Source: Chiloscyllium plagiosum
Taxonomy: Eukaryota
Direction of reading: 5' to 3'
Length of the DNA stretch: 64,000 nt
Assembly: GCF_004010195.1 (NCBI RefSeq)
Contig: NC_057752.1
Coordinates: forward strand, 10,790,865-10,854,864
Below the pieces are notes generated by a model. It was not told the origin of the DNA. It was given only the letters and a program-made list of their open reading frames with translations, and searched no databases. The position numbers and the translations under genes were made by a program. Of this stretch, positions 11,621 through 61,060 are shown piece after piece. Within the stretch, counting starts at the first letter, position 1. Each line of letters starts with the position of its first letter.

Positions 11621-14532
11621 TATTAGAGATGATTGCCCTACTGAGGGAGAAATCTTGAAGATCATCTTAGCTGTTTCTGCTGGGAATGTAAGCCAATCAA
11701 TATAAAAGCTGCATCTCGGAGGCTAAAAACTTTCAAAGGCAAGTATTGTTGCAACCACCTAAAGAAAGTGATGCATGAATAGGAAGGGTTTGGACGAGTT
11801 GGACCGAAGGGTCTGTTTCTGTGCTGTACATCTCTATGACAAGGGAAGTTATGGAAATTAAACAAACATCTTTATGGGTAGAATGATGCTGCGAGGACAC
11901 AGCATTTCTCAGTTAAGTCCATCCTGCTGAAAGTAGGTTACATTCAACTGGAAGCAGCCTCAGTAATGTTCTACTGGTATCACAGAGAGAGGTGGCAGGT
12001 ATCTTTAGGATGATTGTTTTCTCTAGGGAAGGTGTACTGAATTTTAACAAAGTGCAACAGATAAAATTGAAGGAGTTTAAGATTGGAGGTCAGACTTCAG
12101 GAGCTTTTAAATGTACAGGGTTAAACATTAAGGGGAATAAGGAAGGAATGGCTTTGGATCAACAGTTTAGGAAAGTCTTAATTACATTCCGGAAAGTCAG
12201 GCCAGGTCCTCGTGTGATTATGCATTCAGAAAAGCAGACCAGTTAAGAAAGCTGATTTGAAGTTAAATTGGTTATGCACTCAGGCTGCATCTCTTCACTG
12301 GTTTGGCATATTGGAATGACTTACTATGATGGAACATGCTACCGTTAAGTCTTGAGAGCATCAGAAAAATGCTTGGATCCAGTGCTTCACGTGCTAAACT
12401 TGAGTCGGCTATTATATTACAAAGTTCATCATATTCTTTGTGGGAAAAAATAATAAATGTTGCCAGTTGGGCCTGGGAAGCTAAGCCAATAAAAAGGCTA
12501 TGCAAAAGTGCCTTAGCTGCTGAAACATAGATACTAGCAGATGCTATAGATACACAGGATTATCCTGATCCAATATTCTGCAGGAAATCCAATACAAGGG
12601 GCAACATGTGGAAGGTTCACCTCTAGAACGTTTTGTGGATAACGTTTTGGGACAATGAATATTCAACAAAGATGTTGCTGAGGTTTGACCTTTGTTTGCA
12701 TAAAAGAAATGTTAGAAAGGAAATAGATTTCCAAATTAAAGCGAGTTGATGCAAGTCACCATTTATCAAATATTTCACAAGAGGTGATTGCTTCAAGAAA
12801 TTATTGGAGATCCGCAAAGAGGAGCACCTGGTGGTATGAAGCACTTGCTGTTTTATTTAAATTTTTTTTTGCTAAAGAAAAAGGGGGAAGAATAGGAAAT
12901 ATAATATGAAAAAGTAATTGTGCCTGATTGGTTAAGTTCTCAACTGCGATATAGGAAAAGGCATAATTGTTCATTTTCATCAAGCCATACAAACAATCCT
13001 TAAACAAGGCTTTGCTTTAAAAATTTAGTAAGCAATTAAATAGGTGATTTGCATTTATTGATGAATTAATTGACTACATAGATATAAAGGTGGAACAGGT
13101 GTGAAGTAGTTGTGGGACTGAATAGTTAAGCTCTATCCACAAAGGAAGGCATCTTGGTTTTTGTATCACCAACTGGTTTTGACCCAAGTTGACATCAAAA
13201 ACTAGAAAACAGAAGAGCTATGATTAAAATTCAGAAGCACCTTTAAAATTTCCTAGTGTTACAATATAAGGCACTGCTGTTCCAAGTAAAGTCACCACAG
13301 TGACATGGGATGGCATACAGCAGGGATTATTCCACGTATAAAGTAATCAACACACAATACTAAATAATTAAACACCAAACAGTAAACACTGAATAATCTA
13401 GTAAGTGTAATTTCAGATTCACATTTCCCAGCTCGGATGTTGATTTTCACAAAAGTTTTTCAGAGATGACTATGGATTATCCCCTGACATCACATGTTTT
13501 GATCGTGAGATCAGAATCCATGAAACACAAACAGAATACATTAGTATAATTCAGGAAGAGAGGACAGTTTACATGTAATAAAAAACCAGGTCCACAGAAA
13601 GTGGAAAATTGCTGAATAACAGTCTGAAATTTCCTTGGAAAGCAAAAGTTCAATCAATATGGCCTTTGTTTAAGAGCAGTACGTTCATTAGGTGCTGGAA
13701 GCAGAATTACACCACCAAAGGAGAAAACATACAAATGCTACCGATCTTGGAAAAATGCACACTATATCCTGTATGCAATTTCATCTGGTGTCTCCCATCT
13801 CTAATTTCAGAATTTAATGAAAACCTAATCAAGAAGAAAAAAACAGTTCTGAATGAGTCATTTGTGCTGCATATGTCTTGTGGGGGGTGGTTGGCTTAAG
13901 TATCTTGAAGAATTGCAGAGAGAATAAAGCTTTCATTTTGAAAGTGCTAAGGGAAGCTATTTCAGTGTGAGATGTGATCCTCCTACTGAGAGTCTGAGGA
14001 TTTCATTCACACCCACACACAGATTCTGTAACAATTGACGTAGATGGTGGATGAAGAGCTGAAATTCATGAATTACTGCAGTGGAGTTCCCATCAACCAG
14101 TGCAACTGCCTGCAATACACGTGTTGAAACCAGATCAAGGAAGTTTTCTGCTATTGGTAAAACTATTTTATGAAAAACTAGGTCACAGTTTCAGAACAAT
14201 TTTGTTTGAAACTATACAGAAAATATGACAGAATGAGAGCTAAGAATTTACTCCATCAGGTAGCTGTATGGTTTACTGTAAACCTCTGCACGGCTCATTA
14301 TAAGCTTCTGTACATTAATGCAGTATTTCACCAGTATGAGACGGTGGTATTTGAGAGCAGGGCAGGCTACACTGGTGAAGGGGCATTCAGCTGCAAACTG
14401 CTGATGCACCTAATAATCCAAAAAACTGGAACAGCCTTTCATGCATTTGAAAGATATAGTTTACATAACATTCCAGACGAGATCCCGAATCCATGCTAAC
14501 TACATTCACCCAAGCCAGAGGCACACAAATCA

Positions 14533-14706
14533 GAATCGAGCGTGGGGTGCTGGAAACGCACAGCAGGTCAGGCAGCAGCTGAGAAGCAGGAGAATCGACG
14601 TTTCGGGCATAAGCCCTTCATCCTGATGTGCTGCCTGGCCTGCTATGCTTTTCTAGCACCACACTCTCGACTCTGATTTTCAGCATCTGTAGTGCTCACT
14701 TTCTTC
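14533..14706. mobile_element. Penelope pLTR-derived hairpin insertion (family A), truncated hammerhead
   Basis: Inverted arms of the CAGCAGGTCAGGCAGCA motif; TSD CACACAAATCA at 14522-14532 and 14707-14717. Confidence 0.85.
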
Positions 14707-15159
14707 CACACAAATCAAATGCCAGCCATCACATAGATTACGGTTACAAAATGGTATCCAGTGGATAAAATAGCAACATTATTCAGTGATTATGTGCAAG
14801 CCTTGTGCTTTAAGGGCTAAACTCAATCAAACTGAATAAATCTTCAAAAGCCTGATGAATTTTGTAGATGAGATTAAATGCAATAATGTTCACAAATGTT
14901 AATGTTGACACAAATCCTGGTTGAACAAAAACAGGCTCCTTTCCTGCTTGATACAAGGTGCACTGAACCTTCCCACTATCCCAATAAGCAGCATGTCTGC
15001 AAAAGCTGAAATGAAGGAATGAGCTGGGAGGCACAGAGAATGCAGTTAATGATCATTTACACTCTTTTTGCCATTTTACGTTTGACCACAATTGTACTAA
15101 GATTTGACTTTGACTTTCTTTCCAAAATTGCTTTCTTCATTATAGATGGATACCACCAC

Positions 15160-15800
15160 CAAAGGTATGACATCACTGAATCCCCCATTATCAACATTCT
15201 AGGGGTGACATTGTGCAGAAACTCAAAATGGACTTGCCACATAAACACAGTTGCTACAAGAGTAGGTCATAGGCTAGGAACACTGTGGCAAATAACACAC
15301 CTTCTCACTTCCCAAAACCTGTCCGCCATCTACAAGGCACAAGTTAGGAGTGTGATGGGGCAGCTCCAACAACACTCGAGAAGCTTGGCACTATCGAGGA
15401 CGAAGCAGCCCGTTTGACTGGCACCACATCCACTCCTTCTACCACCGATGCTCAGTAGCAGCAGTGCATACCATCCAGAAATTCAAAGACCCCCAGACAG
15501 CACCTTCCAAACCCACAACCACTTCCATCGAGAAGGACAAGGGCAACAGGAACATGGGAACACCACCACTTCCAGGTCGCTCATCATCCTGAGACTTGGA
15601 AATATATTACCAACATTCCTTGAGTATCGCTGGGTCAAAATCCTGGAATCCCCTCCAAGGCTATTGTGGGTCAACCTTCGGCATATGGATTGCAGCGGTT
15701 CAAAGCAGCAGCTCATCACTAACTTCAAAGAGGAACTAGGACAGACAATAAATACTGGCCCAGCCAGCGATATCCAGGCCACACATGAAGGTAGAAAAGA
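15160..15800 (+). mobile_element. L2/CR1-group LINE 3' fragment
   Basis: NILGVT...WTCHINTVA...LSAIYKAQVRSVM; tail ATAAATACTGGCCCAGCCAGCGA. Confidence 0.8.
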
Positions 15801-15965
15801 TTGTTTTTTGGGTGGGGGCTGGGGGGTGTGACAGTAAAGTTGAGCAAAATTGTTCTCACCTCCTACACAAATACCATCCTGCAATCCCAATTCCTCCGCC
15901 TCTGCCCCCAGGAGGACCAGTTCCACCACAGAACACACCAGATGGCCTCCTTCTTTAGAGATCAC

Positions 15966-17640
15966 AGGGTAACTAGGGAGAGAATAGGGCCCCTCAAAGA
16001 TCAGCAAGGTGGCCTTTGTGTGGAGCCACAGAAAATGGGGGAGATACTAAATGAATATTTTGCATCAGTATTTACTGTGGAAAAGGATATGGAAGATATA
16101 GACTGTAGGGAAATAGATGGTGACATCTTGAAAAATGTCCAGATTACAGAGGAGGAAGTGCTGGATTTCTTGAAACAGTTAAAGGTGGATAAATCCCCAG
16201 GACCTGATCAGGTGTACCCAAAAACTCTGAGAAGCGAGAGAAGTGATTACTGGGCCTCTTGCTGAGATATTTGTATCACCGATAGTCACAGGTGAGGTGC
16301 CGGAAGACTGGAGGTTGGCTAGCGTGGTGCCACTGTTTAAGAAGGGCGGTAAAGACAAGCCAGGGAACTATAGACTGGTGAGCCTGATGTCGATGGTGGG
16401 CAAGTTGTTGGAGGGAATCCTGAGGGACAGGATGTACATGTATATGGAAAGGCAAGGACTGATTNNNNNNNNNNNNNNNNNNNNNNNNNNNNNNNNNNNN
16501 NNNNNNNNNNNNNNNNNNNNNNNNNNNNNNNNNNNNNNNNNNNNNNNNNNNNNNNNNNNNNNNNNNNNNNNNNNNNNNNNNNNNNNNNNNNNNNNNNNNN
16601 NNNNNNNNNNNNNNNNNNNNNNNNNNNNNNNNNNNNNNNNNNNNNNNNNNNNNNNNNNNNNNNNNNNNNNNNNNNNNNNNNNNNNNNNNNNNNNNNNNNN
16701 NNNNNNNNNNNNNNNNNNNNNNNNNNNNNNNNNNNNNNNNNNNNNNNNNNNNNNNNNNNNNNNNNNNACACCAAAATTGGAGGTGTAGTGGACAGCGAAG
16801 AGGGTTACCTCAGATTACAACAGGATCTGGATCAGATGGGCCAATGGTTTGAGAAGTGGCAGATGGAGTTTAATTCAGATAAATGCGAGGTGCTGCATTT
16901 TGGGAAAGCAAATCTTAGCAGGACTTATGCACTTAATGGTGAGGTCCAAGGGAGTGTTGCTGAACAAAGAGACCTTGGAGTGCAGGTTCATAGCTCCTTG
17001 AAAGTGGAGTCGCAGGTAGATAGGACATTGAAGAAGGCGTTTGGTATGCTTTCCTTTATTGGTCAGAGTATTGAGTACAGGAGTTGGGAGGTCATGTTGC
17101 GGCTGTACAGGACGTTGGTTAGGCCACTGTTGGAGTATTGCGTGCAACTGCGGTCTCCTTCCTATTGGAAAGATGTTGTGAAACTTGAAAGGGTTCAGAA
17201 AGGATTTACAAGGACGTTGCCAGGGTTGGAGGATTTGAGCTACAGGGAGAGGCTGAACAGGCTGGAGTTGTTTTCCCTGGAGTGTCGGAGGCTGAGGGGT
17301 GACCTTATAGAGGTTTACAAAATTAGGAGGGGCGTGGATAGGATAAATAGACAAAGTCTTTTCCCTGGGGGTCGGGGAGTCCAGTACTAGAGGGCATAGG
17401 TTTAGGGTGAGAGTGGAAAGATATAAAAGAGACCNNNNNNNNNNNNNNNNNNNNNNNNNNNNNNNNNNNNNNNNNNNNNNNNNNNNNNNNNNNNNNNNNN
17501 NNNNNNNNNNNNNNNNNNNNNNNNNNNNNNNNNNNNCCAGGTGCTGGCAGGTGGGACTAGATTGGGTTGGGTTATCTGGTCGGCATGGACGGGTCGGACC
17601 GAAGGGTCTGTTTCCATGCTGTACATACCTATGACTCTAT
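15966..17640 (+). mobile_element. HER1/CR1 LINE, 5'-truncated ORF2 (RT) to 3' end, with two N-gaps
   Basis: KSPGPDQVYP, WRLASVVPLFKKG..PGNYRLVSL, LYRTLVRPLLEYCVQ; tail CTATGACTCTATG. Confidence 0.95.
16465..16767. other. Assembly gap (other gaps at 17435-17536 and 23429-23671), all inside young LINEs
   Basis: Runs of N. Confidence 1.
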
Positions 17641-17969
17641 GGTTGAAGATGCCCTCCAATGCATCTCGTCCACATCCCGCACCTCCACCCTCAGACCCTA
17701 CCCCTCCAACCGTAACAAGGACAGAACCCCCCAGTTCTCACTTTCCACCCTACCAACCTTCGCAATAACCATATCATCTGCCGACATTTCCGCCACCTCC
17801 AAACAGACCCCACCACCAGGGATATATTTCTTTCCCCACAGACCCCACCACCAGGGATATATTTCTTTCCCCACCCATTTCCGCCTTCCGCAAAGACCGT
17901 TCCCTCCGTGACTACCTTGTCAGGTCCACACCCCCAACAAACCACACCCCCAACAAACCACCCTCCCGT

Positions 17970-18395
17970 CCCGGCACCTTCCCCTGCCACTGCAGGAATT
18001 GCAAAACCTGCGCCCACACCTCCTCCCTCACCACCATCTAAGGCCCCAAAGGAGCCATCCACATCCATCAACGTTTTACCTGCACATCCACTAATATCAT
18101 TTATTGTAGCCGTTGCTCCCGATGCTGTCTCCTCTACATTGGGGAGTCTGGATGCCTCCTCACAGAGCGCTTCAGGGAACATCTTCGAGACACCCGCACC
18201 AATCAACCCCACCACCCCGTGACCGAACGTTTCAACTCCCCCTCCCACTCTGCCGAGGACATGGAGGTCCTGGGCCTCCTCCACCGCCGTTCCCTTACCA
18301 CCCGACACCTGGAGGAAGAACGCCTCATCTTACGCCTCGGAACACTTCAACCCGAGGACATCAATGTGGTCTTCACCAGTTTCCTCTTTTCCCCT
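17970..18395 (+). pseudogene. Penelope GIY-YIG endonuclease region (premature stop ~18040)
   Basis: Manual translation FTCTSTNIIYCSRCSRCCLLYIGESGCLLTERFREHL...LEEERLILRLGTLQPEDINVVF. Confidence 0.85.
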
Positions 18396-18607
18396 CCCCC
18401 ACCTTACCTCAGATCCAAACTTCCAGCTCAGCACTGTCCTCATGACCTGTTCTACCTGCCTATCTCCCTTTCCACCTATCCACTCCACCCTCCCCTCTGA
18501 CCTATCACCTCCAACCCCACCCCCATTCACCTACTGTACTCTTTGCTACCTTCTCCCCAGCAACCCCCCACCATTTATCTCTCCACCCTGGAGGCTTCCT
18601 GCCTCTA

Positions 18608-18642
18608 TTCCTGATGACGGGCCTTTGCCCGAAACGTGGATT
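18608..18642 (+). ncRNA. Minimal hammerhead motif (family A) in the Penelope 3' pLTR; G at cleavage position, probably inactive
   Basis: TTC-CTGATGA-C-GGGC-CTTT-GCCC-GAA-ACGT-G-GATT. Confidence 0.75.
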
Positions 18643-19254
18643 TTCCTGATCCTCGGATGCTGTCTGACCTGCTGTGCTTTTCCAGCACCACTCTAATCTA
18701 AACTCTATTCTCATTAAATGTCTGGTGATGTGTCAACGTTGCCTCAGCCCTGGAACTATAAAAGCAATCCTCCAAAGATCAACAGCTTTGAATGAGTTTA
18801 AGCCCTAGAGTATCAGGATTCAGCAAATTCATCTTTCCACTTGCTCTTTTAATAATAGATCCAGCTTTAAAAAAAAGGTTGTTTTACGGTGCAATTGGAT
18901 ATCCTATAATCAATGCACATGTTAAAGGATATCACTCACTCACATGTGACTTTTACGTAATAGACATGGGTCCTATGGTGCATGTCTGTGGCTTTGAGGT
19001 TTCACCCTTCATACGATAACATTCCACCATGCACATTACTGTGTTTTTGCTAGCTTTCTGTACTCTCACTGTAGACATAGACTTGCAAGGCAAGTGAATC
19101 CAGAACAGCAACAGTTGAAATGAAGTTGCACTCGTTTGGAATGAGGTTTTCTTGCCTGAAGTAGGAACTAACAGCATGCCAATCTCTCATGACATTGTTT
19201 ATGTGCAGTCTGGCATTTGGAGTTTGGTTACGGTGTTTCGTATAGTTTCAAAAA

Positions 19255-21120: not shown

Positions 21121-21137
21121 AAAAATATTTCCCCATA

Positions 21138-21265
21138 GGTTAGGTTAGGTGAATTGGCCATGCTAAATTGCCCATCATGTTAGGTGCATTAGTCAAAGGG
21201 AAATGGGTCTGGGTGGGTTACTCTTTGGAGGGTCAGTGTGGACTGTAGCAAATCTAATCTAAATC
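21138..21265 (+). mobile_element. HE1 SINE 3' half
   Basis: GTTAGGTGAATTGGCCATGCTAAATTGCCC...AATCTAATCTAAA. Confidence 0.8.
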
Positions 21266-24029
21266 TTCTGGTTTGATCACAAGCTTACTTTGAGTCTTAA
21301 AAATACAACGAATATGAAAAGAGAGGCTAATACGTCCTGTGAAACTTGTTTGCCATTCAATATGATCATGGCTGATTTCTGCCCCAACCCCACTTTCATA
21401 GAGTCATAGAGATGTACAGCATGGAAACAGACCCTATGGTCCAACCAGTCCACGCCGACCAGATATCCCAACTCAATCTAGTCCAACCTGCCAGCACCCG
21501 GCCCATATCCCTCCAAACCCTTCCTATTCATATACCCATCCAAATGCCCGACCCCCAGGGAAAAGACTTTGTCTATTTATCCTATCCATGCCCCTCCTAA
21601 TTTTGTAAACCTCTATAAGGTCACCCCTTAGCTTCAGGAAAAACAGCCCCAGCCTGTCCAGCCTTTCCCTATAACACAAATCCTCCAACCCAGGCAACAT
21701 CCTTGTAAATCTTTTCTGAACCCTTTCAGGTTTCACAACATCTTTCCAATAGGAAGGAGACCAGAACTGCAACCAATATTCCAACAGTGGCCTAACCAAT
21801 GTCCTGTACAGCCGCAACATGACCTCCCAACTCCTGTACTCAATACTCTGACCAATAAAGGAAAGCATACCAAATGCCTTCTTCACTATCCTATCAACCT
21901 GCAACTCCACTTTCAAGGAGCTATGAACCCAGCACCGATCCTTGTGGCACTCCACTGGTCACAGGCCTCCAGCCTGAAAAGCAACCCTCCATCACCACCC
22001 TCTGGTCTTTTACCTTTGAGCCAGTTCTATATCCAAATGGCTAGTTCTCCCTGTATTCCATGAGATCTAACCTTGCTAATCAATGTCCCATGGGGAACCT
22101 TGTCGAACACCTTACTGAAGTCCATATAGATCACATCTACTGCTCTGCCCTCATTAATCTTCTTTGTTATTTCTTCAAAAAACTCAATCAAGTTTGTGAG
22201 ACATGATTTCTCATGCACAAAGCCATGTTGACTATCGCGAATCAGACCTTGCCTTTCCAAATACATGTACATCCTGTCCCTCAGGATTCCCTCCAACAAC
22301 TAGGCTCACCGGTCTATAGTTCCCTGGCTTGTCTTTACCGCCCTTCTAAAACAGTGGCACCACGTTAGCCAATCTCCAGTCTTCCGGCACCTGACCTGTG
22401 ACCATCGATGATACAAATATCTCAGCAAGAGGCCCAGCAATCACTTCCCTAGCTTCCCACAGCGTTCTCGGGTACACCTGATCAGGTCCTGGGGATTTAT
22501 CCACTTTTAACAGTTTCAAGACATCCAGCACTTCCTCCTCTGTAATCTGGACATTTTGCAAGATGTCACCATCTATTTCCCTATAGTCTATATTTTCCAT
22601 ATGCTTTTTCACAGTAAATACTGATGCAAAATATTTATTTAGTATCTCCACAATTTTTTGTGGCTCCACACAAAGGTCGCCTTGATGATCTTTAAGGGGC
22701 CCTATTCTCTCCCGAGTTGCCCTTTTGTCCTTAATGTATTTGTAAAAATTCTTTGGATTCTCCTTAATTGTATTTGCCAAAGCGATCTCCTGTCCCCGTT
22801 TTGCCCTCCTGATTTCCCTCTTAAGTATACTCCTACTGCCTTTATACTCTAAGGATTCACTCGATCTATCCTGTCTGTACCTGATATATGCTTCCTTCTT
22901 TTTCTTAACCAAACCCTCAATTTCTTTAGTCATCCAGCATTCCCTATACCTACCAGCCTTCCCTTTCACCCGGACAGGATTATACTTTCTCTGGATTCTT
23001 GTTATCTCATTTCTGAAGGCTTCCCATTTTCCAGCCGTCCCTTTACCTGCGAACATCTGCCTCTGATCAGCTTTTGAAAGTTCTTGCCTAATACCGTTAC
23101 AATTGGCCTTCCTCCAATTTAGAACTTCAACTTTGAGATCTGGTCTATCCTTTTCCATCACTATTTTAAAACAAATAGAATTATGGTCACTGGCCCCAAA
23201 GTGCTCCCCCACTGACACCTCAGTCACCTGCCCCAAGATTAGGTCAAGTTTTGCACCTTCTCCAGTAGGTACATCCACATACTGAATCAGAAAATTGTCT
23301 TGTACACACTTAACAAATTCCTCTCCATCTATACCTTTAACACTATGGCAGTCCCAGTCGATGTTTAGAAAGTTAAAATCCCCTACCATAACCACCCTAT
23401 TATTCTTACAGATAGCTGAGATCTCCTTNNNNNNNNNNNNNNNNNNNNNNNNNNNNNNNNNNNNNNNNNNNNNNNNNNNNNNNNNNNNNNNNNNNNNNNN
23501 NNNNNNNNNNNNNNNNNNNNNNNNNNNNNNNNNNNNNNNNNNNNNNNNNNNNNNNNNNNNNNNNNNNNNNNNNNNNNNNNNNNNNNNNNNNNNNNNNNNN
23601 NNNNNNNNNNNNNNNNNNNNNNNNNNNNNNNNNNNNNNNNNNNNNNNNNNNNNNNNNNNNNNNNNNNNNNNTTGCATTGAAATAAATGCAGTTTAATTTA
23701 TTAGTCCTACCTTGTCCCTACCTGCCCTGATTGTTTGACTCACTTCTGTTCTCAGCTGTACCGGTCTCAGATCGATCTCTTTCCTCACTATCTCCCTGCA
23801 CCACCCCCCCCCACCTTACTAGTTTAAATCCTCCCAAGCAGTTCTAGCAAATTTCCCTGCCAGTATATTAGTCCCCTTCCAATTTAGGTGCAATCCGCCC
23901 TTGTACAGGTCACTTCTACCCCAGAAGAGATTCCAATGATCTAAAAATGTGAATCCTTCTCCCGTACACCAGCTCCTCAGCCATGCATTCATCTGCTCTA
24001 TCCTCCTATAGCCCTCACTAGCTCGTAGC

Positions 24030-24122
24030 TGAAAAATGTGTTGCTGGAAAAGCGCAGCAGGTCAGGCAGCATCCAAGGAACAGGAGAATCGACGTTTCGG
24101 GCATAAGCCCTTCTTCAGGAAT
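24030..24122 (-). mobile_element. 93-bp Penelope pLTR fragment (family A) inserted in HER1 ORF1
   Basis: 17-bp direct repeat CCTCACTAGCTCGTAGC at 24013-24029 and 24123-24139. Confidence 0.92.
24086..24122 (-). ncRNA. Minimal hammerhead motif (family A), core intact
   Basis: ATTC-CTGAAGA-A-GGGC-TTAT-GCCC-GAA-ACGT-C-GATTC. Confidence 0.8.
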
Positions 24123-24879
24123 CCTCACTAGCTCGTAGCACTGGGAGTAATCCAGATATTACTACCCTTGAGGACCTCCTTTTTAAATTTCTGCCTAACT
24201 CTCTGTAATCTCCCTTCAGAGTCTCAACCTTTTCCCTTCCTATGTCGTTGGTTCCAATGTGGACAATGACCTCCTGTTGGGCCCTCTCCCCTGTGAGAAC
24301 ATTCTGTACCCTCTCTGAGACATCCTTGATCCTGGCACCAGGGAAGCAACACACCATTCTGCTTGTTCTCTGCTGGCCACAGAAACGTCTGTCTGTACCT
24401 CGGACTACAGAATCCCCCAACACAATTGATCTCTTGGAAGCCGAAGTACCCCTCGTTGCATTAGAGCCAGTCTCAATACCAGAAACTCCCTTATCCCGAG
24501 TCTGTGCCAGTGTTCTGGATCGCCCAGCCTGAAGGAAACAACTGCTCAGCATTGACCCTGTCAAGCCCTCTCAGAATCTTTCATTTTTTAATAACATCAC
24601 TTCTTGTACTACCAAATTCCAATGAGTATTGGCCCAACTTGCTGAACCTTTCCCCATAGAACAACCACTTAATCTCAGGTACCATGAGAAACAAAAACTG
24701 TTTGAACATCTAAAAGCCATGGCAGAATTGTGCTGCAACTATGGAAGGGCTTGTGGTGATAACCCTTGGATACCAATAAGCCAAACATCAACACACTCAA
24801 CTGAAAACTTTCTCCTTGAAAGGCACATTGCAAAGAATCTACAGCACAAACAGGCCATTGATCCCACAGTTCAAAGTCA

Positions 24880-25345: not shown

Positions 25346-25592
25346 AATCAAGCCATACCTGATAAAGTTTCAGTTGCATCCCTGGATTATAATATGGAAG
25401 GAGGCACCTTTTATAGATATCACCACAAGGTAATCCATTGGATATGCTCTCTAAATAACTCTAGTGCTATATCTTCAGCCTCTCACGTTTGCGTAAACTG
25501 CTCAAGATAGAATTGCAACACTGACCTTGATATTTAAGGGGAGACAGAAAGAATGTGGGACAAGATGAAAACGGCCAGAGAATGTATCGAGG

Positions 25593-25809
25593 TCAAGATT
25601 AGAGTGGTGCTGAAAAAGCACAGCAGGTCAGGCAGCATCGAAGGAGCAGGAAAATTGACGTTTTGGGCAAAGGCTCTTCATCAGGAGCTTTTGCCCAAAA
25701 CGTCAATTTTCCTGCTCCTCGGATGCTGCCTGACCTGCTGTGCTTTTTCAGCACCACTCTAATCTTGACTCTGATCTCCAGCACCTGCAGTACTCACCTT
25801 TCGCCTCGG
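25593..25809. mobile_element. Penelope pLTR hairpin (family A), near-perfect ~90-bp arms
   Basis: Mirror ORFs KIRVVLKKHSRSGSI on both strands; TSD GAATGTATC(G/A)AGG at 25580-25592 and 25810-25822. Confidence 0.92.
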
Positions 25810-32649: not shown

Positions 32650-33545
32650 TTTAGCATTTGCCGGTTTACACACCGGATTGTGGAGGAAACACAGTATCAA
32701 AGCTACAACAAAAACTGCTGTGGTAATACCTGATCTCTTACATGCCTGTGAGACATAGGCTACCTACTCCAGACACATTAAACAGTGTCACATGTTCTAA
32801 ATGCATCTTGTGTGGAGCCTAACAGTTATAAAATGAGAGGGGTAGGTGCTCAACACTGAAGCACTTCCAAGAGCAGAAATAACTGGAATTGAAGTATGGC
32901 GAAAGTGAGGACTGCAGATGCTGGAGATTAGAGCCAAGAGTGTGGTGCTGGAAAGCCACAGCAGGTCAGGCAGCATCTGAGGAGCAGGAAAATCAACATT
33001 TCGGGCATAAGCCCTTCAACAGGTAGGGCTTTTGCCCAAAACATTGATTTTCCTGGTCCACGGATGCTGCCTGACCTGCTGTGTTTTTCCAGCACCACAC
33101 TCTTGGCTGAATTGAAGTATTCCCACCATCAGCTCAAATGGAGTGAATATGCAGTATATATGGCTGACAATAAAAACTCTGAAGGCAGTCACGACTTAAA
33201 CTTGAACACTGCGTGAGGTGAGCCAAGAAGAAGATACAAAGACTCCTTGAGGTGAACCTCAGAAAACTTACTGGGAGAAAAATGCACAGGAAAGATCTGC
33301 CTGAAGAACAATCTTAAGTAATGGTGTTCCTTCCTTCAAACAGCAAATACAGGCAGCTAAGCACAAAAGACAAGCTACAAAGATGGTAGTCCCACCAGAA
33401 TCAGACAATTCATTCTTGACCACGATGTGGAAAGCCACGCAGGTCTGTAATTGGGCTCCACAGCCCACATCAGAACACACAACAGATGACTCGATGCATA
33501 TAATCAGTCATCTTCAGGAACGAAGGGACACTGAGGATGACAACA
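32650..33545 (+). mobile_element. Decayed RTE-type LINE 3' fragment
   Basis: AVVIPDLLHACET*ATYSRHIKQ resembles RTE VVLTTLLYGCETW; QLKWSEYAV; KRRYKDSL. Confidence 0.6.
32898..33108. mobile_element. Penelope pLTR hairpin (family A) inside the RTE fragment
   Basis: Perfect 12-bp TSD GAATTGAAGTAT at 32886-32897 and 33109-33120; inverted arms. Confidence 0.92.
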
Positions 33546-38419: not shown

Positions 38420-39330
38420 ATCTCCAAATTTAACAATCTCCCCTTGACATTCAACAGTATTACCATCACTTAATCCCTCACTATCAACATACCATCAACC
38501 AGAAACTGAATTGGACCAGCCACATAAATACAGATGGACTCGTGGTTATTGATTTTTGAGGGCTCTTGTGGCGCAGTACGCTTCTGGGCAAGAAGACCTA
38601 GATTTGAGTCCCACCTGCTTCAGAGATGTGTCACAACAAGTTGATTAAAAATATAAGTGAGCACGGATACAATTGCAGTTCAGAGCCAGGAAATCCTGCG
38701 GCAAGTAACTCCCCTCCTGATTCCCCAAAAGCCTGTCCACCAAGAACAAGGCACAGGTTAGGAGTGTGATGGAATACTCCCGACTTGCCTGGATGAGTGT
38801 AGGAGAAAGTGAGGACTGCAGATGCTGGAGATCAGAGCTGAAAATGTGTTGCTGGAAAAGCGCAGCAGGTCAGGCAGCATCCAAAGAGCAGGAGAATCGA
38901 CGTTTCGGGCATGAGCTCTTCTTCAGGAAGGATGAGCGTAGCCCCAACACAAGCAGCTCAACACCATCCAAGACAAAAAGCCTGCTTGATTGACATCCTC
39001 TCCATCACTAGCATACCATTGTACTCACCACAGCAATCTACAAGATGTAATACAGCAGTTCAGAAGACTCCTTCAGTAGCACCTTCCAAACCCATGGCCT
39101 CAGGGGAAGCAAGTGCACAAGAACACCACCACCTGCAAGTCACTGACCATCCTGACAAGAAAACATATTACCATTACCTGCAGTGGCACTGGGTCAAAAT
39201 GTAGAACTCCCTATGTATCGATGCATCATTAACATATGGACAGCAGCTTCTCACACCTCCTCAAGAAGTATTAGGAAGGGGCAACAAATATGGGCCTTGT
39301 CAATGACACTCATGCTATGAATGAATATTT
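38420..39330 (+). mobile_element. L2/CR1-group LINE 3' fragment with two nested inserts (short SINE 38559-38655; pLTR 38803-38929)
   Basis: KAQVRSVMEYSRLAWMS; same family as 15160-15800. Confidence 0.8.
38803..38929 (-). mobile_element. Solo Penelope pLTR (family A) with near-intact hammerhead at 38894-38929
   Basis: TSD GGATGAG(T/C)GTAG at 38791-38802 and 38930-38941; TTC-CTGAAGA-A-GAGC-TCAT-GCCC-GAA-ACGT-C-GATTC. Confidence 0.9.
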
Positions 39331-42334: not shown

Positions 42335-43090
42335 TGGGGAGGTGAGGGCTTAGTGGTATTATCACTACACTATGAATCCACAAACCTCAGTAATATTCTG
42401 GGAACCCGAGTTCTGGATGTAGGGTTGCTTGCTGAACTGGAAGGTTTGTTTTCAGACGTCTCATCACCATACTAGGTAACATCATCAGTGACCCTCCAGA
42501 TGAAGCACTGGTGGCAATGGCGGCAATGGCCTGTTTTCTGTGTGCGTTTAGGCTCCCTTGGGTTGCTGATGTCATTTCCTGTTCTTTTTTCTCCCACCCT
42601 TAAGGAAAAAGAACAGGAAATGACATCACCAACCCAAGGAAACCTAAACACAAAGAGAAAGCGAGCAACACCTTCGGTGCGTCATCTGGAGGCTAACTGA
42701 TGATGTTACCTCGTGTGGTGATGAGACGTCTGAAAACAAATCTTCCGGCTCAGTTAGCAAGCCTATATCTAGAACCTCAACCTGAGCTACAAATCTTCTC
42801 AGATCTCTCTCACCGGAGTTCAAATTCTGCCATGACAGGTGGTGGAATTCAAATTTAATGAATATATGGAATTAGAAGTCTAATGATGACAACAAAACCA
42901 CTGTCGATTGTCAGGAAAAGCCCATCGCATTCACTAATGCCCTCTTGAGAAGGAAACTGCCATCCCTAACTGGTCTGACCTACATGTGACTCCAGATCCA
43001 CAGCAATGTGGTTGACTCTTAACGCAATTAGGGAAGGGTAATAAATGCTGGCCTAGTCAGTGATACTACATTCTGTGAATAAATTTTTAA
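42335..43090 (+). mobile_element. tRNA-derived SINE split at its B box by a Penelope hairpin
   Basis: GGGGAGGTGAGGGCTTAGTGGTATT head; resumes GAGTTCAAATTCTGCC at ~42816; tail TAATAAATGCTGGCCTAG. Confidence 0.85.
42414..42811. mobile_element. Penelope-type pLTR hairpin (family C), ~180-bp arms, two hammerhead-like motifs (42453-42490 -, 42695-42732 +)
   Basis: TSD ACC(C/G)GAGTTC at 42404-42413 and 42812-42821; CTGATGA-T-GTTACC-N6-GGTGAT-GAG-ACGT-C-TG. Confidence 0.85.
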
Positions 43091-47785: not shown

Positions 47786-47804
47786 TCTTTATCTCGAAGT
47801 TCAA

Positions 47805-50345: not shown

Positions 50346-51431
50346 AGCCATATGGATAACAAAATTCAGTTCATTATTAATATTGAACTTTCAAGTACAT
50401 CACTAAGAATTCAGTTTGAGTAAAGACAGTCGAGTTATCCGAAATGCTTTGTATTTAATACATACTTTTTTATAACAGGAAGAAAAAAAATGCTACACCA
50501 CCTCTTAAAATGAGATTCAGCAGCGATGACTCATAGGAGTGAGCTGCAGCCACCTACACACATCTGTCAACAGAATTCTCTTTGTCTGAGGTTTCTTTAC
50601 ATGATAGTGATGCCTTTGCATTAAAAAATAAATTGACACCATTTAAGATATTGCTGACTTCAGGGTACAGGTGATTGAAAACCAGTGGGAAATAAAAACT
50701 TGTGCAACACAGAAATCCAAATGTACTCTCTCTCAGTGTGAGAGAAAATATTTTTAAAAATAGCTAAAGTGCCAAGATAACAGGATGAGTCACCTTGGGC
50801 CACTCTTGTGTACCCTCTGATAGTTCATAACAATACTATAAAAGTCCTAAAGAAGATGCTCTGACATTGCTTCCAGGGAATGGTGTGGGAGAGTCTTCAA
50901 GCAGTTGCATGGGTACAACATTAAGTCAATGAGACAAGCCCATTAATAAAATTCATTTTTCCATGAACTAGAAGGGTCCGAAAGAGAAATCGTGTGGAAT
51001 GACATGGTCCTAAAAGTTACAACACACTTCCAAATCCTGACATGCTTGTATCCAAATTATTTTCAGACTCAATCTTGTTTAGTTATAGTGCAGCCAATCC
51101 TATTATTAGCAAGCCTGGTTGCCAACCTATTACACAGAGAAAGATTCCACCATTCCAATCAAAGCTGCCTCACTGCAAAAACAAAATCCCCCATATATCA
51201 GTAACAGCTGAAAAAAGCTGCTTAAAACACCACTCTTAGTAACACTGATGTGTAGATATTTGCTCTCTTATAAAGCCAAAATGCAATTAGAATTTCATTA
51301 TTTGAACTATTTATGAAACATGTCCTTGCTATGTGACTGAACGTCGTGTTTCATGATACTTCTGCTCCATATACAGATACTTGGCAAAATTAAAGCTAAA
51401 CTAGAGCAAAAGTAAAAAACAACTATCCAAT

Positions 51432-53510: not shown

Positions 53511-54124
53511 AAGCGCATCAGAGAAGGATGCTCTTTTGTCCATTATTCTGTTCTGATTCATTTTGTAGCCTATTACATTATGTAATATTAATTAGATCTC
53601 AAAATATGAAACATCTGATAAATACAGTCAATTCTTTGAGAACACAATAGTTGCCTTCCTATGCAACCCCACATTAAAGAAAAATTGTGCTTTAAAAACA
53701 TTGGCGATGTAATCACATTAGAGCCAACACATGTTTTAAAAGTTTGCGCTTTAGAAACAGCATTCCCAATTCGTCAATCACATTACAGCAAATTGGCATT
53801 GACAAAACGCATGTTAGAACAGAACAACCTGGAGTTGAAAAAACTTTCATTCTTCAAATAACATCCATACACGGGCACAGCCTGCCTTCACAGGGAAAGC
53901 ATATGTCCAGTCAAATGAAGAGAGCATCTCCGTGGAGTCCATATCCCTGCCAAACTGTGTTAACTCAATGTCATAACATTTACACAGATCTTCCTTGAGG
54001 CTTCTCCCGCCTGTGTGACGCACTGTGACAATAAGTTCAGCGAAAAATTCTATTAAGAGCTTCTATCTCACAGAGGTGTTTGAGTTCATTCAGATCCAAT
54101 AACCTGTTCTGAAAACTCAAAAAC

Positions 54125-54460
54125 AGCACTTGCTGCCCATCTCTAATTGTCCTTGAAGTGAATGGCTTGTTCGCCCATTTTAGAAAGCAGTTAGGAGTGA
54201 ACCACATGGCTGTGTGTCTGGAGTCAACGCAAGCTCAGCAGACTTCCTTCTCGAAAGGATATTAGTGAAACAGGCGATTTTTGAAAAAAAATTCAATAAA
54301 CTCTGACGGTCACCATTAGCTAGATTAGCTTTCATGTTCAGATTTATTTGCTGAATTTTAGCTCCACCAAAGCAGTGCTAGAATTTGAACCAAAGTCCAC
54401 CAGATCATCAGCCTGGGCCTTTGGATTACTAGCCCAATGAGACTGGCAGAGTGGTAATGT
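54125..54460 (-). mobile_element. Older tRNA-derived SINE related to 2030-2365
   Basis: GCACTTGCTGCCCATCTCTAATTG tail; GGATTACTAGCCCA...GAATTTGAACC head on minus strand. Confidence 0.6.
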
Positions 54461-54575
54461 CTCCCCACAAACTCACTTACCCCAAAGGTGGCAGAAACAA
54501 ATCTGAATATTTTGAAGAATGAGGTGGACGGATTTTTGAAAAAGGGATGAAAGGTTATTGGGTGTAGACAGGAAT

Positions 54576-54915
54576 GCGGCATGGTGGCTAAGTGGTTAGC
54601 ACTGCTGCCTCACAGCGCCAGGGTCCCGAGTTCGATTCCAGCCTCCAGAGTCTATCTCTGTGGAGTTTGCACATTCTCCCAGCATCTGCATGGGTCTCCT
54701 CAGGGTGCTCCGGTTTCCTCCCACAGTCCAAAAGTGTGCAGATTAGGTGAATTAGCCGTGCTAAACTGTCCCATAATGTTCAGGGATGTGTAGGTTAGCT
54801 GCGTTAGTCAGGGGTAAATGTCAGGGAATGGGTCTGAGTGGATTACTCTTTGGGAGGTTTGATGTGGACATTTGAGCCGAATGGCCTGTTTCCAAACTGT
54901 AGAGATTCTACGATA
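54576..54915 (+). mobile_element. HE1-like V-SINE inserted in a CR1 3' fragment (54490-54990)
   Basis: GCGGCATGGTGGCTAAGTGGTTAGCACTGCTGCCTCACAG; V-domain. Confidence 0.9.
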
Positions 54916-55604
54916 ATCCTATCAGCTATGATCTTATTGCATGAAGTAGGTTCAAGTGATTGAGTGGCTTACTCCTGCTTTCAATTCATATATTTCTAAG
55001 AAACCCAACCTGCCTTTTCATTCTTACAGAGCAGGGACGTACCTAACAAAAGAAGATTACACAAAAGGGACTGCTTCACAGAAGTTGCACAGTTGTCAAG
55101 TCTGGTCTGGCATGGAATTGCCATACACTGCAGTTAAAGGTAGACAGTAATATTTTGTATAAGGGTGAGGGGTTCTTCATCTAGTAGCTTTCTATAGGCT
55201 AGCAATGGGAACCCAAGATAAAAACAGCTTTCATTTATATTACACTCCGATCACTATTCTTCAAAACATGCCAACATTGTTCAAAGACACTGAATTTTGT
55301 CAAAATGGAACAGCAATTTTGTGATCAGGAAGGTCCCACAAACAGTAATGAAGTGAACTAACGTATAATTTTCTTTGGGTTGCTTTTGGCTGAGGAAAGA
55401 ATGTTGACCAGGATCTCTAAACAACTCCCTAATCTCCAGTAAATGGCATCACATCAAATGCATGAGCTGTCTCGGGCAAAAGCCCTTCATCAGGAGGAGA
55501 ACTTCTTCAAGGTATGATTTGGAGATGCCGGTGTTGGACTGGGGTGTATAAAGTTAAAAATCACACAACACCAGGTTATAGTCCAACAGGTTTAATTGGA
55601 AGCA

Positions 55605-55639
55605 CACTAGCTTTCGGAGTGTCGCTCCTTCATCAGGTG
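55605..55639 (-). ncRNA. Minimal hammerhead motif (family B), intact
   Basis: CAC-CTGATGA-A-GGAG-CGACA-CTCC-GAA-AGCT-A-GTG. Confidence 0.8.
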
Positions 55640-55859
55640 ATAGTGGAGGGCTCAATCCTAACACACAGAATTTATAGCAAATATTTACAGTGTGATGTAA
55701 TTGAAATTATACATTGAAAAATTGAGTCTGTTAAGCCTTTCATCTGTTAGAATACAGTGATAGTTTTACTTCTTTCATGTGTAAATCACAAAACCTTCTT
55801 TTTAAAACGTTGCATTCTCGGGTTAGCTGTTAACATTACAGCTGACCACCATTGCACTA

Positions 55860-55876
55860 TATATACACACACTCCT

Positions 55877-55907
<31 letters not shown>

Positions 55908-56066
55908 GGCACTCCTATACACACAGACACACTCCCACACTCACACACGCACCCCCTCACAGACTTAAGACACTCTGCACTCACTACACACACTTTCTCA
56001 CACTCACAACCCCCAACCCAGACAGACAGACAGACACACACACAGACAAAAACCCACACGCACACA
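55860..56066 (+). repeat. Compound (CA)n/(CAGA)n low-complexity tract within the family B element
   Basis: Visible repeats. Confidence 0.9.
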
Positions 56067-56477
56067 TATTTTGTGGGGTGAATTTGTACTTGCAGGGTTA
56101 CATTGTACTTTGCTCAAAAACTGCATGCATTCATGTAGAATTCGGAGCTCAAAAACTACATGAATTTATGTACAACTCAGTCATCTCACTTTTTAAGATT
56201 AGAATCAATCTAAACATCATGGCATAGACAGAGAACACAGGGGGCTAACACCTTCAACATATCGTCTAGCTATCACCATTGTTAACAGCTAACCAGAGAA
56301 TGCAACTTCTTAAAAAAAAGATTTTGAGATTTACACATGAAAGAAGTGAAACTATCACTGTATTCTAACAGATGAAAGCCTTAACAGACAATCAATTTTT
56401 CAATGTATAATTTCAGTTACATCACACTGTAAATATTTGCTATAAATTCTGTGTGTTAGGATTGAGCCCTCCACTAC

Positions 56478-56512
56478 CACCTGATGAAGGAGCGACACTC
56501 CGAAAGCTAGTG
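56478..56512 (+). ncRNA. Minimal hammerhead motif (family B), intact
   Basis: CAC-CTGATGA-A-GGAG-CGACA-CTCC-GAA-AGCT-A-GTG; stem I CAC/GTG. Confidence 0.8.
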
Positions 56513-58195
56513 TGCTTCCAATTAAACCTGTTGGACTATAACCTGGTGTTGTGTGATTTTGAACTTTCTTCAAGGTAGGCATCCTTGCAAGGGCTTTTGC
56601 CCGAAACGTCGATTCTGCTGCCCCTTGGATGCTGCCTGACCTGCTGTGCTTTTCCAACACCACTCTAATCTAGACTCTGATCTCCAGCATCTGCAGTCCT
56701 CACTTTCACCTGCATGAACTGTCTGCCTGTTAACAGAAATGCAATAGACATTAAGGCATTATTTCAAGAGAAGGGAGACTCTCCTAGTGTCTTAGTCCAT
56801 CATCCCTCCTTGAACCAATGTCAGCAAATAGAAAAACCACAACTTATCTCAATACTGTTCGTGGGACCTTGTTCCCCATAAACCACATCACAACTTTAGT
56901 GACAATTGTTTCATCGGAAACTTTGAAGTGCAAGAAACCAGTTTCCTTTTGTGGGATTATAAATTGAAATGCAAGTGGGACTGCTAGAAAGCTAAAATAC
57001 TGGGACAGTTTTGCTACTTGAAAATAATGCACTACATATTTTTCAGCTGTGCAATACAATGTCCCTTTTTGAAATAGAGGGAGGGAGAATTCAAGACAGA
57101 GCAGCAACAGGAGTCTTTTGAATTGAGGAAATTCTGCCTAATGACAGCTCTCTGATTGCTGGAGTTGCAGAGTGTTAAAAGCTCTAAATGCCAGGACAGT
57201 ACAGAGAAACAGAGCCTGCAAACTAAAATCAGACATCTCTCTATGCCCCTGTGTGGGGAGAAAAAAGGCTAAAAAAATTCTAAGACCTAGGTTCAAGTGA
57301 TCAACAATTGAATAAAAAAAAACACTCTTACATTCATCATCAGTGCTAAAAAGCAAAAATAAAAAAAATCAACTTAATCCACTTTCTGGACTTGTGATCT
57401 TCAGAATTCTGTTCACCGGATATTCTTTTGCCACATATCATGTCTGTCAAACAGCCTGGCTTTTGTCTCTCTTAATTGTGAACAAGTGTGTAAGGGCTTT
57501 TTGAAGGGTATAGTTTAAAAATTCTTTCTTTACTCTGACTTATGTTAAAGTTATTTGTTATCAGATAAAGTTATTTTTGTTAATGATTGTGAATTACTTT
57601 TGTCCTGAATAGCAGTCAAGCAGGCAAATTGCTCATCTTAGTGATTTGATCGGGCGTTCATACATTTGAGATGGCTTGAGGAGCAACGGGGCACAATTAT
57701 CAGCACACTCTTCTCAGTTAAGTCATCACGAAAGTACTTTATGAGACCGCCTAAAATCATGAAAGGAGACTTTTTTAAAGAAATGTCATGCATTTTAAAA
57801 AAAAAACTTATGCTTGGTATGAACTGAGGAACATTATTTACTTCATCTTCTTCTCAACTTCCCATCCTCGCTGGTGCCCATTCCCCATGAACCTTTGGTC
57901 TCAAGTTATCAGTTAAAGTAAAATCTTCTGTTTACAGAGTAAAATTTCTCCCAGTGCTGAATCTTTGGGCACAATAGGTAAAGTTTACCTATTCAAACTT
58001 ATAACTGCCTTTTTATTATCTGTTTCCATAACGGCTTTCTCCTTAATGTGTCTGAATCGACTGAAGTCGAGTTTCTACCATAAATAAATTACAGTTTAGA
58101 ATGTAAATCCAGTTATTTGACTTGACTTGAATGCATTTCTTATCCGTTGGTTTTTCCACTGAAAATACTGATTTCGGTTTGCTAGCACTAAAGTC

Positions 58196-58224
58196 AAGCA
58201 AACAAACAAACAAACAAACAAACA
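58196..58224 (+). repeat. (AAAC)n microsatellite
   Basis: About 6 units. Confidence 0.9.
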
Positions 58225-59644
58225 ATCTGGTTGTAAACTATTTCTGGTGTTCAAGCAGTGGGAAAATAGTATGGAAGGTGACCACGGAGAGTTCAGAATC
58301 ATCCTGGGAAACTCAACAAATTAAAGATTCATATTCAGATAAACATTCACAATTGGCACCTTACTGTAGGTTGATTGCATGCTGGAATGAATGAAAAGTA
58401 CTGGTGATGTTGCAATGAATTTGGCACAAATGACTGCTGACTTCTATGTCCACATACTCTCTGACTTGTATGAATGGGACATGCATGGAAGAATCCTTAA
58501 TATTGTTTGTTACTATCGATTGTTAAAGGACCATCAACGGACACCAGTTTTCAGGGACTCACGATCAAACCCTCACTTAATAGCTTGCTTTAAATTAAAA
58601 GTCAAACGGAAGAAATTAATTTTAGAGTTCCAGCTACTTGGCTGCCACTAACACAGGCAATATACATGCTGATGTCGCACATGCAAATTGGGTAATTTGT
58701 CAGGCTTCATTTGTAACAAATAACAATAATAAAGTTCACAAACGGTGTGAGAGCAATAAAAAAAGGAACTAATGGGATTTGGGGAAAGAGAACACTAAAA
58801 GGTTCCTGCTTGCTAGCTGAACTGGCTTCGGGGTCAGTGACTCTCCTTCAGACTGGAATATTGAAGAATCTAATATTCTTTCAATCTTGGAAGAACAAGA
58901 GTGGATCTATTTGAAACACAGAATTTGAAATGACAAGATAGACATCAAGAGACTGAGAATTGAGAGTATGGGGCAACAGTTGCAGAATTAGGAATCAACT
59001 ATTTAGGACTGAATTAATGAGGAATATTTTCACTCAAGACGTTATGAATCCTTGAAATTCTTTTCCCGAGAGAGTTGCATATGCTCAATTGAGAGTATAT
59101 CCAGCACTTAAAATGAAAAGAATTTTACTCTAATTTTTTCCCCTGAGTATCTATGAAATTTCATTGGAATCCTTGAATTCTCCATCTTAAATGGATATTT
59201 CCAAAGGGTTCCAAGCGAAAGGCAATCGCCCAGTCGAATATTCAAATTCCCAAGCAATTGCTTCAAAATCTGTTACAAATGGGGATTACCCATGCACAAC
59301 TCCCATCTATGTCAGAATGATGATAGTCTGTCCATCGGAAAATCAAAGCCATTTTGTCCAAATGATCCGTGCAACCATTCTGGTCATCCACAAAGCCCAC
59401 CTAACACAGCTAAAAAGACATGACAAGTTAAATACAATCAAAATTAAACTATTTGGTTTGAGATAAACAAAAACTGACTCATACAGTCAACCACTATGTA
59501 TAGAAATCCCTTCCAAGAATTTTTCTTCAATCATGGGCTGAGTCCCAAGTTCACCCCCCATTCCCTGAAATGATACTTGTCCTGTACCTGCTTGAATGAA
59601 GTTGCACCAAGTAACTCACTACAATTGCTTGAGTGTACCAGTGC

Positions 59645-59960
59645 ATAGAACATAGAACAGTACAGCACAGAACAGGCCCTTCAGCCCATGATGTTGTGCC
59701 GACCACTGATCCTCATGTACGCACCCTCAACTTTCTGTGACCATATGCATGTCCAGTAGTGTCTTAAATGTCCCCAATGACCTTGCTTCCACAACTGCTG
59801 CTGGCAACACATTCCAATCTCTCACAACTCTCTGTGTAAAGAACCCGCCTCTGACATCCCCTCTATACTTTCCTCCAACCAGCTTAAAACTATGACCCCT
59901 CGTGTTAGTCATTTCTGCCCTGGGAAATAGTCTCTGGCTATCGACTCTATCTATGCCTCT
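59645..59960 (-). mobile_element. CR1 3' fragment with (GTTCTAT)n tail
   Basis: TRGHSFKLVGGKYRGDVRGGFFTQRVVRDWNVLP; CATAGAACATAGAACAG. Confidence 0.85.
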
Positions 59961-60269
59961 CTATTAAGCAGTCTAATACTTCCAAATTGCAGCTTAGAGA
60001 TGGTCCACGATACTAATTTTATCAGTTTTACATCACACAGCCAAAACGTTGGAATGGGAAAACAACATTTTCCTGAGTTGCAGCTTTCATGTTAGAAAAA
60101 AAAAACTCCGTTCTTGGACAGATCAGTCCTCACACGTCTACTTCCATTATCCTTTGGGCTCTCTGACAGTCTAGCTCCTTGCTGTACTTCATTTGCTGGC
60201 CCTTGCCCACCAGGTCCGCTTTTTCTTGCATTACAAAGTTTCTGGGGCCCTTGCTGTCTCTGACAGCCC

Positions 60270-61060
60270 AGCTTCCTGGATCCCACTTATGCGTGTCTCT
60301 TTGTGCGCTATGTGGAACATTCCTAGCTTCAGTTCCATTCGAGACCCCTCCCACAATTGTTTCTCTGATATTTTAATGACTATCAGTGCCACTTCCTGCT
60401 TTCATGCAAAAATCAGAAAAATTCATTAATTTTACTTCCAATTTCAAGATTACAGGTGTAACACTTGCCCCTTTACCTCCTCCCACATCCAGGGCTCCAA
60501 ATACAGATAAAGCAGAAAGTTACCTGCCATCTTTCAATTTAGTCTGCTATATTTTCTGCTCACAATACAGTCTCCCTTAGATTGGCGAGACCTACTGCAG
60601 ATTGGGTGAACACTTCTAGTTGCTTTCCATTTTAATGTCTCAATATTTCAATACCATCTTGCTCCCATGCTAACCCGTGCATCCTCGGCCTGCTGCAGTA
60701 TGCTAGTAAAGACCAATGGAAACTGGAAGACACAGCTGGAGTGGAGAGAGCGTGAGAGCGAGAGAGAGCGCACGAGAGCGAGAGACATTTTCTGTAATAA
60801 CACCCACATCAATATCTATTCTTCATGTATATCTCCTCCCTACGACCTTACAGTACTCTTTTTCCTCTGGTTCACCATAATCTGTTCCAAATTCTTCTAA
60901 CGCCTACCTTATTTCAACAGCATATACCCCATCACTTTTTCAGCCCTTTTCAACACAAAGGAAGAGTCGTAACAGACTTGAAACATTAATTCTGTTTCCC
61001 TCCCCATAGATGCTGCCCGACCTGCTGGGTTTCTGCAGCATTTCCTGTTTTCCTTTCAGA
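60270..61060 (+). mobile_element. Decayed Penelope-like element with eroded pLTR (family D)
   Basis: TATGCGTGTCTCTTTGTGCGCTATGTGGAAC (YACLFVRYVEH); NLVCYIFCSQ...*IGET; end GAAGAGTC..GACTTGAAACATTAA...AGATGCTGCCCGACCTGCTG. Confidence 0.65.

Follow-up and report, generated by a model that had tools for sequence, protein, structure and literature searches.

The stretch of DNA analysed here (the window) comprises 64,000 nucleotides (nt) of the shark Chiloscyllium plagiosum, contig NC_057752.1, positions 10,790,865 to 10,854,864 of the forward strand. Similarity searches with natural copies located in it 16 minimal hammerhead ribozyme modules of four families (A, 11; B, 2; C, 2; D, 1). The first-pass annotation of this DNA, made from the letters alone, had ascribed these motifs to Penelope-like elements (PLEs), and modules of families A, B and C do each adjoin GIY-YIG PLE coding ends; all of the sites it named are present. 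The cited papers are drawn on in part, and statements about them apply to those parts.

Hammerhead modules and Penelope-like sequences in the window

The features are listed below, with C3 of the hammerhead core numbered +1. The 3' ends of A, B and C copies lie at either of two sites spaced by about 35 nt, which correspond to the PLE tail; pLTR stands for pseudo-long terminal repeat, RT for reverse transcriptase and ORF for open reading frame.

14522..14717, family A head-to-head pair with an 11-bp duplication (14522-14532 and 14707-14717), no intact ribozyme; minus arm from core +3, plus arm from +48 and tailed
15858..15961, plus strand, 5'-most fragment (RT thumb region) of a family A PLE copy, 81% to locus L174, tblastn match to P0001
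17640..18400, plus strand, degenerate end of a PLE ORF with frameshifts and stops, covering thumb, Cys-rich linker and GIY-YIG endonuclease
18401..18706, plus strand, 3' untranslated region and pLTR with a hammerhead motif at 18611-18638, no tail
24028..24122, minus strand, intact family A1 short copy (stub) of 95 nt starting at A(-4), core 24118-24091, 17-bp duplication (24013-24029 and 24123-24139); the preceding G may be target-derived
25592..25806, family A head-to-head pair, one tailed arm, G12>A in both
32886..33120, family A head-to-head pair, one tailed arm, decayed cores, 12-bp duplication (32886-32897 and 33109-33120)
38798..38929, minus strand, single family A1 stub with tail, intact core and one stem II mismatch
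42410..42800, family C (presumably Poseidon-like) head-to-head pair, one tailed arm, cores at 42488 (minus) and 42697 (plus), both A14>G
55469..55495, minus strand, family A remnant paired with the arm at 56589, A14>G, lacking its 3' part
55503..56577, family B head-to-head insertion, long-armed and tailed on the left side alone, 12-bp duplication (55503-55514 and 56566-56577)
55608..55636, minus strand, intact family B hammerhead of the left arm
56441..56473, plus strand, TATA-like hexamer at 56441-56446, with A(-8) at 56473 as the predicted transcription start
56481..56509, plus strand, intact family B hammerhead of the right arm, predicted cut after 56509
56589..56711, plus strand, family A arm from +7, 5' half of the core missing, tailed
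60961..61060, plus strand, decayed family D module, 5' part of the core missing
Family A modules by position: 14622-, 14629+, 18611+, 24118-, 25684-, 25687+, 33022-, 33026+, 38926-, 55493-, 56589+
Other modules by position: family B, 55636- and 56481+; family C, 42488- and 42697+; family D, about 60961+

A strict descriptor (exact core, stem II, palindrome and H, with one unpaired base permitted after CUGANGA) was passed by the modules at 24118-, 55636- and 56481+ and by nothing in each of 30 dinucleotide shuffles. The roughly 15 "complete or partial" motifs reported earlier are thus present, but only three of the 16 modules are intact by this measure, the other 13 being truncated or changed in core or stem. 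The 18611 module has a G at position 17 and is predicted to be uncleavable; G12>A occurs in 25684, 25687 and 33026, and A6>U in 33022. GAG replaces GAA (A14>G) in 55493 and in both family C copies, for which GAA had been given in error. The 5' part of the core is missing from 14622, 14629, 25687, 33026, 56589 and the D module, rightly described before as decayed, and 38926 has a single stem II mismatch with an intact core. The minimal type I anatomy was recognised correctly, and the layout of CUGANGA, stem II, GAA, palindrome and H stands except for one omission: in all families one unpaired base separates A9 from stem II. A descriptor without this base missed all of the window motifs, and an Rfam scan of the window at the gathering threshold gave no match.

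The 18.6-kb copy runs upstream into a broken ORF for thumb, linker and GIY-YIG endonuclease. The segment 17640..18400 has 84% DNA identity to L174, a related locus that also holds RT, and its best protein match is 82%; this agrees with the earlier report of a pLTR joined to a GIY-YIG ORF end at 18.6 kb. The Pfam GIY-YIG match (E=0.093) falls short of the cut-off, and the nearest named proteins are those of Chiloscyllium and Stegostoma. A LINE-like (long interspersed element) RT insertion near 15.9 kb, which we take to be of CR1 type, splits the 15858..15961 fragment from the rest of the copy.

In family A, RT, endonuclease and pLTR occur together in L174. The B and C modules lie 3' of a GIY-YIG end in other loci, in which RT was not traced, and no ORF link was found for family D in the loci examined. 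The Cys-rich linker before the endonuclease is present in A, was not seen in C and was not reached in B. We tentatively assign A and B to Neptune and C to Poseidon. At three loci (L014, L165 and L190) the family A module directly precedes a methionine-led frame past the tail; the module therefore stands at both element ends, which is the pLTR arrangement. The family A ORF begins about 35 nt 3' of the tail; for B and C no shared post-tail sequence was found and ORF starts were not linked. The end of the family A tail, about 35 nt before the first ATG, is a pyrimidine tract followed by AG and resembles a 3' splice site (L014:1100-1300, L165:7600-8000). Twelve loci chosen for long "open frames" proved to be N gaps, hence no intact full-length ORF was seen. 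In L191-L202, N gaps of 1.6-3 kb, often between inverted pLTRs, are what remains of young long family A elements, so that full-length copies are under-represented in the assembly.

The family B insertion at 55503..56577 interrupts an older family A pair, whose junction (55495-55514, 56566-56591) includes some 30 nt from beyond the tail, which points to a template jump. The A14>G change common to both arms of the family C pair is rare elsewhere (1 of the 100 C matches listed) and points to a common template or to conversion between arms.

Arrangement, copy number and decay in the genome

In the 3.56-Gb genome, exact patterns had 54,284 (A), 19,898 (B) and 2,016 (C) matches, and reversed-pattern controls gave 0. 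For closer study we combined the window with twelve 100-kb blocks taken at arbitrary coordinates on ten contigs (1.264 Mb). The descriptor found 55 motifs in this sample and 0 in five shuffles. Clusters numbered 244 (A), 100 (B) and 71 (C), or 195, 62 and 25 (282 in total) after a diagnostic-motif filter that drops D-family and low-complexity matches. By extrapolation, the genome would hold roughly 550,000 A, 175,000 B and 70,000 C copies.

Among the 282 copies there were 67 head-to-head pairs, two tail-to-tail pairs and nine same-strand neighbours within 600 nt. At this scale none of the nine was shown to be a direct tandem array, the arrangement that a dimer needs; one 118-nt tandem occurs in L200. 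None of these copies was seen to have the two or more consecutive tandem units, each with a complete hammerhead, by which retrozymes are recognised. Target duplications flank 24 of the 129 singles tested and 2 of 383 shuffled pairings, and the copies show the tail, the inverted 5' copy and the target duplication typical of endonuclease-bearing (EN+) PLEs. Exactly one arm is tailed in 56 of the 67 head-to-head pairs (p=2e-8 against 0.5), and the junctions of A pairs are nearly all different (44 distinct among 47). Pairs therefore form anew at each insertion. Four window pairs were folded computationally: three are predicted to form a single long hairpin, the other a looser one; a long pair hairpin would be expected to block a hammerhead dimer.

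Six stem II types were found (GGGC/GCCC, GAGC/GCUC, GGAGC/GCUCC, GUUACC/GGUGAC, GGGUC/GACCY and GAGUC/GACUY; not corrected for phylogeny), all paired, together with two palindromes, ACGU in A, C and D and AGCU in B, and the covariation between families proposed in the first-pass annotation is borne out. Stem II begins with G in all major types (G10.1-C11.1), and position 17 is C, A or U among lineages. Helix I has two contiguous pairs in A and three in B and C, the third changing from U-A to C-G between C subfamilies.

The expected excess conservation among genomic copies, on the other hand, is absent at the catalytic G12. This base lies in a CpG and is lost at the rate of CpG decay, being changed in 18% of 116 A and 22% of 37 B core-spanning copies, as compared with 24% for other CpG positions. 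Core positions outside CpG differ at 3% versus 4-6% downstream, the latter figure being inflated by subfamily variation. Intact motifs remain in 32 of 105 A and 16 of 35 B ungapped copies. Genomic copies decay about neutrally and the covariation lies between lineages; the constraint lies in the source elements. No self-cleavage is predicted for the genomic stubs, which are single or opposed, a pair transcript being expected to fold as a long hairpin. The motif of source elements likely acts on element RNA, either by processing read-through RNA or by removing a capped leader, and its cleavage is likely not required before copying.

Two further groups were noted among the loci. A fifth motif type has stem II GGGU/ACCC (L107:7309, minus; L108:1020, minus). 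A D-related family has a U3-A8 core covariation (UUGAYAA; L205:9884, L210:3321 and L233:7014, all plus; L263 oriented 1057, minus) and resembles a variant reported in Schistosoma PLEs.

The 5' ends and the origin of the short copies

The 5' ends of family A copies fall mostly just upstream of or within the core: 130 of 195 start between -20 and +20 (mode -4), 28 extend more than 30 nt upstream, and three start at the cut site (+27 to +31). Genome-wide, with junction patterns in which two element pyrimidines are swapped for purines, the A1 junctions numbered 6,977 (-4), 448 (+29, the cut site) and 219 (+33). The peak at +29 was rejected as a sign of cleavage, as it is only twofold over +33, and about 13 of 20 inspected loci are fold-backs and one an internal deletion. 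A control at -8 in A1 was also set aside, being confounded by a subfamily variant (90 of the 100 matches listed).

Family B has a TATA hexamer at -38/-40, about 30 nt before A(-8), and from it a start at -8 was predicted before the junction test. Tallied by hand on the first 100 matches listed for each pattern, the base preceding the B copies is G in 92 and A in 8 at -8, as against 52 and 48 at -9 (Fisher p=2e-10). In A1 the base before -4 is G in 58, A in 32 and T in 10; among the matches listed the ratio AG:AA is 35:8, against a background of 0.25:0.34 (p=2e-7), and 14:35 at +33. Inspection of 70 A1 loci gave 36 fold-backs (G in 27) and 34 classed as single, and in the four singles that combine a clean duplication with a single extra base, this base is G throughout. 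A fixed target motif was rejected as the source of the G, since other junction positions did not show it. In full-length L1 insertions the cap leaves an extra G as its mark (PMC11702581).

We consider the short A and B copies to be dead-end complementary DNAs (cDNAs), primed internally at the tail and ended by run-off at the capped 5' end of uncleaved RNA, with a probability of about 0.62. As judged from sequence, RNA polymerase II transcripts would start 4-8 nt before the core, at A(-4) in A1 and at A(-8) in B, and, 90-125 nt downstream, the PLE protein would prime at the tail sites. The cDNA would run off the cap, the extra G being the copied cap, and its end would be joined through microhomology to the target or to a second cDNA. 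Each target strand may prime at a different one of the two sites, giving one tailed and one untailed arm. Long copies would result from priming at the downstream module in read-through RNA. Short copies have no upstream TATA-like motif, and such stubs would likely be dead ends. Priming at two internal sites and extension on both strands have been observed in vitro for an anole PLE, in which hammerhead cleavage is protein-assisted and not needed for insertion (Frangieh et al. 2024, PMC11167929). The role of the hammerhead and the transposition cycle of PLEs are stated as open (PMC8557442, PMC11167929).

Several observations weigh against this proposal. A2/A3 junctions have G and A at 50:50 and AG:AA at 17:14 (p=0.2), so that their G excess is not significant. 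Before -4 in the 34 single A1 loci, G (14) shows a modest excess with A at 14 and T at 6, and many junction Gs could come from the target or from the other arm. Rather than sharing one base, the 5' ends range from about -12 to +25, and the B junction count at -8 (689) is only 1.8 times that at -9 (389). In family C, 42 of 59 copies extend at least 25 nt upstream despite a TATA box near -48, with a small group near -16 to -19, and family A has only a weak TATA-like motif.

The same ends might instead be those of ordinary 5'-truncated copies primed at the 3' pLTR, with the RT stalling at a folded or protein-bound hammerhead and microhomology setting the junction. Such truncation is standard for PLEs (PMC8557442), the junctions have 1-4 nt of microhomology and a broad spread, and the long family A copies prove that the 3' module primes. 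However, the ends fall after the RT has crossed the whole motif rather than at the motif's 3' base, stalling does not predict a one-base G excess 30 nt past a TATA box, and family C, with a longer stem II, has no such pile-up; we therefore find this explanation doubtful. That the copies were made from RNA cut by the ribozyme or circular, the origin proposed for retrozymes, is very improbable. It would account for the twofold junction excess at +29, and a preprint reports retrozymes in tandem from one chondrichthyan (bioRxiv 10.64898/2026.07.22.740005), but it would give copies without a core and most copies retain it, the +29 loci inspected are largely fold-backs, and direct tandems are rare.

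The first-pass annotation had seen in the short units non-autonomous elements mobilised in trans. We judge it unlikely that they are transcribed and re-mobilised in this way, or that most of their templates are read-out RNA from promoter-bearing truncated copies. The very high copy number suits the idea, as do the A14>G shared in the window C pair and a report of pLTR mobilisation in trans in a rotifer (PMC3846280). There is also a slight excess of CpG changes common to both A arms (14 of 193 sites, reached by 14 of 1000 shuffles), but B has no such excess. Identity between arms was left out of account, since the use of different references distorted it. Against it, both arms of a pair end at priming sites, which means that pairs form anew at insertion, and A, B and C each have long copies linked to an ORF. 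Self-propagation of the units is not supported, given variable junctions, neutral decay, rare tandems and the lack of a promoter-like motif in the stubs. Nor are they units of the SINE (short interspersed element) kind, with a fixed 5' end, an own promoter and a re-copied unit, for the promoter-like motifs lie upstream of the copied part. A weaker form, with RNA from long truncated copies as template, is compatible with run-off at the cap as well.

It seems slightly better than an even bet that the hammerhead forms the first 30-40 nt of a capped messenger RNA and that the genome is littered with hundreds of thousands of cap-marked stubs, a record of capped uncleaved templates with one priming site per target strand, the ribozyme cut (if any) removing the capped leader instead of producing the template. 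Should the extra G prove to be a copy of the cap, the start of the RNA could be read to the base from copy ends, and copying in vivo would take place without prior cleavage. This would provide a cheap test for any PLE-rich genome. A further warning is that descriptor counts of genomic hammerheads in such genomes mostly represent dead stubs.

Relation to known systems and neighbouring repeats

Minimal hammerheads were described in metazoan PLE pLTRs as singles and as opposite-strand pairs from truncated PLEs, with low activity in vitro (Cervera & De la Pena 2014, PMC4209133), and the first-pass annotation was right that the class is known. The shark modules share with it the core, the unpaired base after A9, G10.1-C11.1, a 4-nt palindrome replacing helix III and a short helix I, and also the presence of several families per genome, mostly as singles or opposite-strand pairs. 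They differ in the 4-5 bp stem II of A and B and in number, with tens of thousands of exact matches versus about 4,000 in coelacanth and about 9,000 in Xenopus. The 5' ends were mapped here, whereas no 5'-end mapping was found in the parts of that paper covered; shark terms did not occur in the one supplement searched. The shark families are therefore added members of a class known since 2014, and the new part is the junction record. In our literature search neither these shark families nor cap marks at PLE junctions came up in any paper; Repbase and Dfam lay outside it, and the families may be catalogued there. For hammerheads and Penelope in sharks it returned one review, with no shark data in it, and for capped template RNA of hammerhead-bearing PLEs only PMC11167929.

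As in Poseidon PAc of Anolis (PMC11167929), two putative internal priming sites bound the tail, extension would involve both strands and hammerhead cleavage would not be needed, and in family C an ATG at the start of stem II opens a frame through the tail. In family A, unlike PAc, the ORF begins past the tail. In vitro the strands of PAc did not differ in the priming site used, whereas shark pairs carry one of each; a term search of that paper, in the part covered, gave no mention of transcription start or cap. The C-terminal GIY-YIG, the pLTR, the inverted 5'-truncated copy, a 30-40 bp tail at one end, target duplications and TATA/Inr-like pLTR motifs are shared with EN+ PLE units of Neptune and Penelope/Poseidon (PMC8557442, PMC3846280), but most shark copies are cut to modules of 90-130 nt that start at the hammerhead. 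The transcript of Drosophila virilis Penelope starts inside the pLTR (PMC2377424), as predicted for the shark elements. Its internal promoter is TATA-less and an intron precedes the hammerhead, whereas in shark B and C a TATA hexamer lies upstream of the putative start. Non-LTR retrozymes (bioRxiv 10.64898/2026.07.22.740005) are likewise PLE-derived non-coding units with type I hammerheads and dispersed monomers, but are defined as tandem repeats with a hammerhead per unit, and the shark copies are single or head-to-head. The supplements of that preprint, outside our search, may list the shark families.

Apart from the PLE copies, numerous LINE-like fragments with matches to RT, exo/endonuclease and a GDSL-like ORF1 lie at 15.9-17.6, 21.4-24.6, 28.8-30.4, 44-45, 51.7-52.3 and 61.5-63.6 kb of the window, and short repeats, tRNA-like by appearance only, are located at 10.5, 28.3, 30.5, 32.1 and 54.6 kb.

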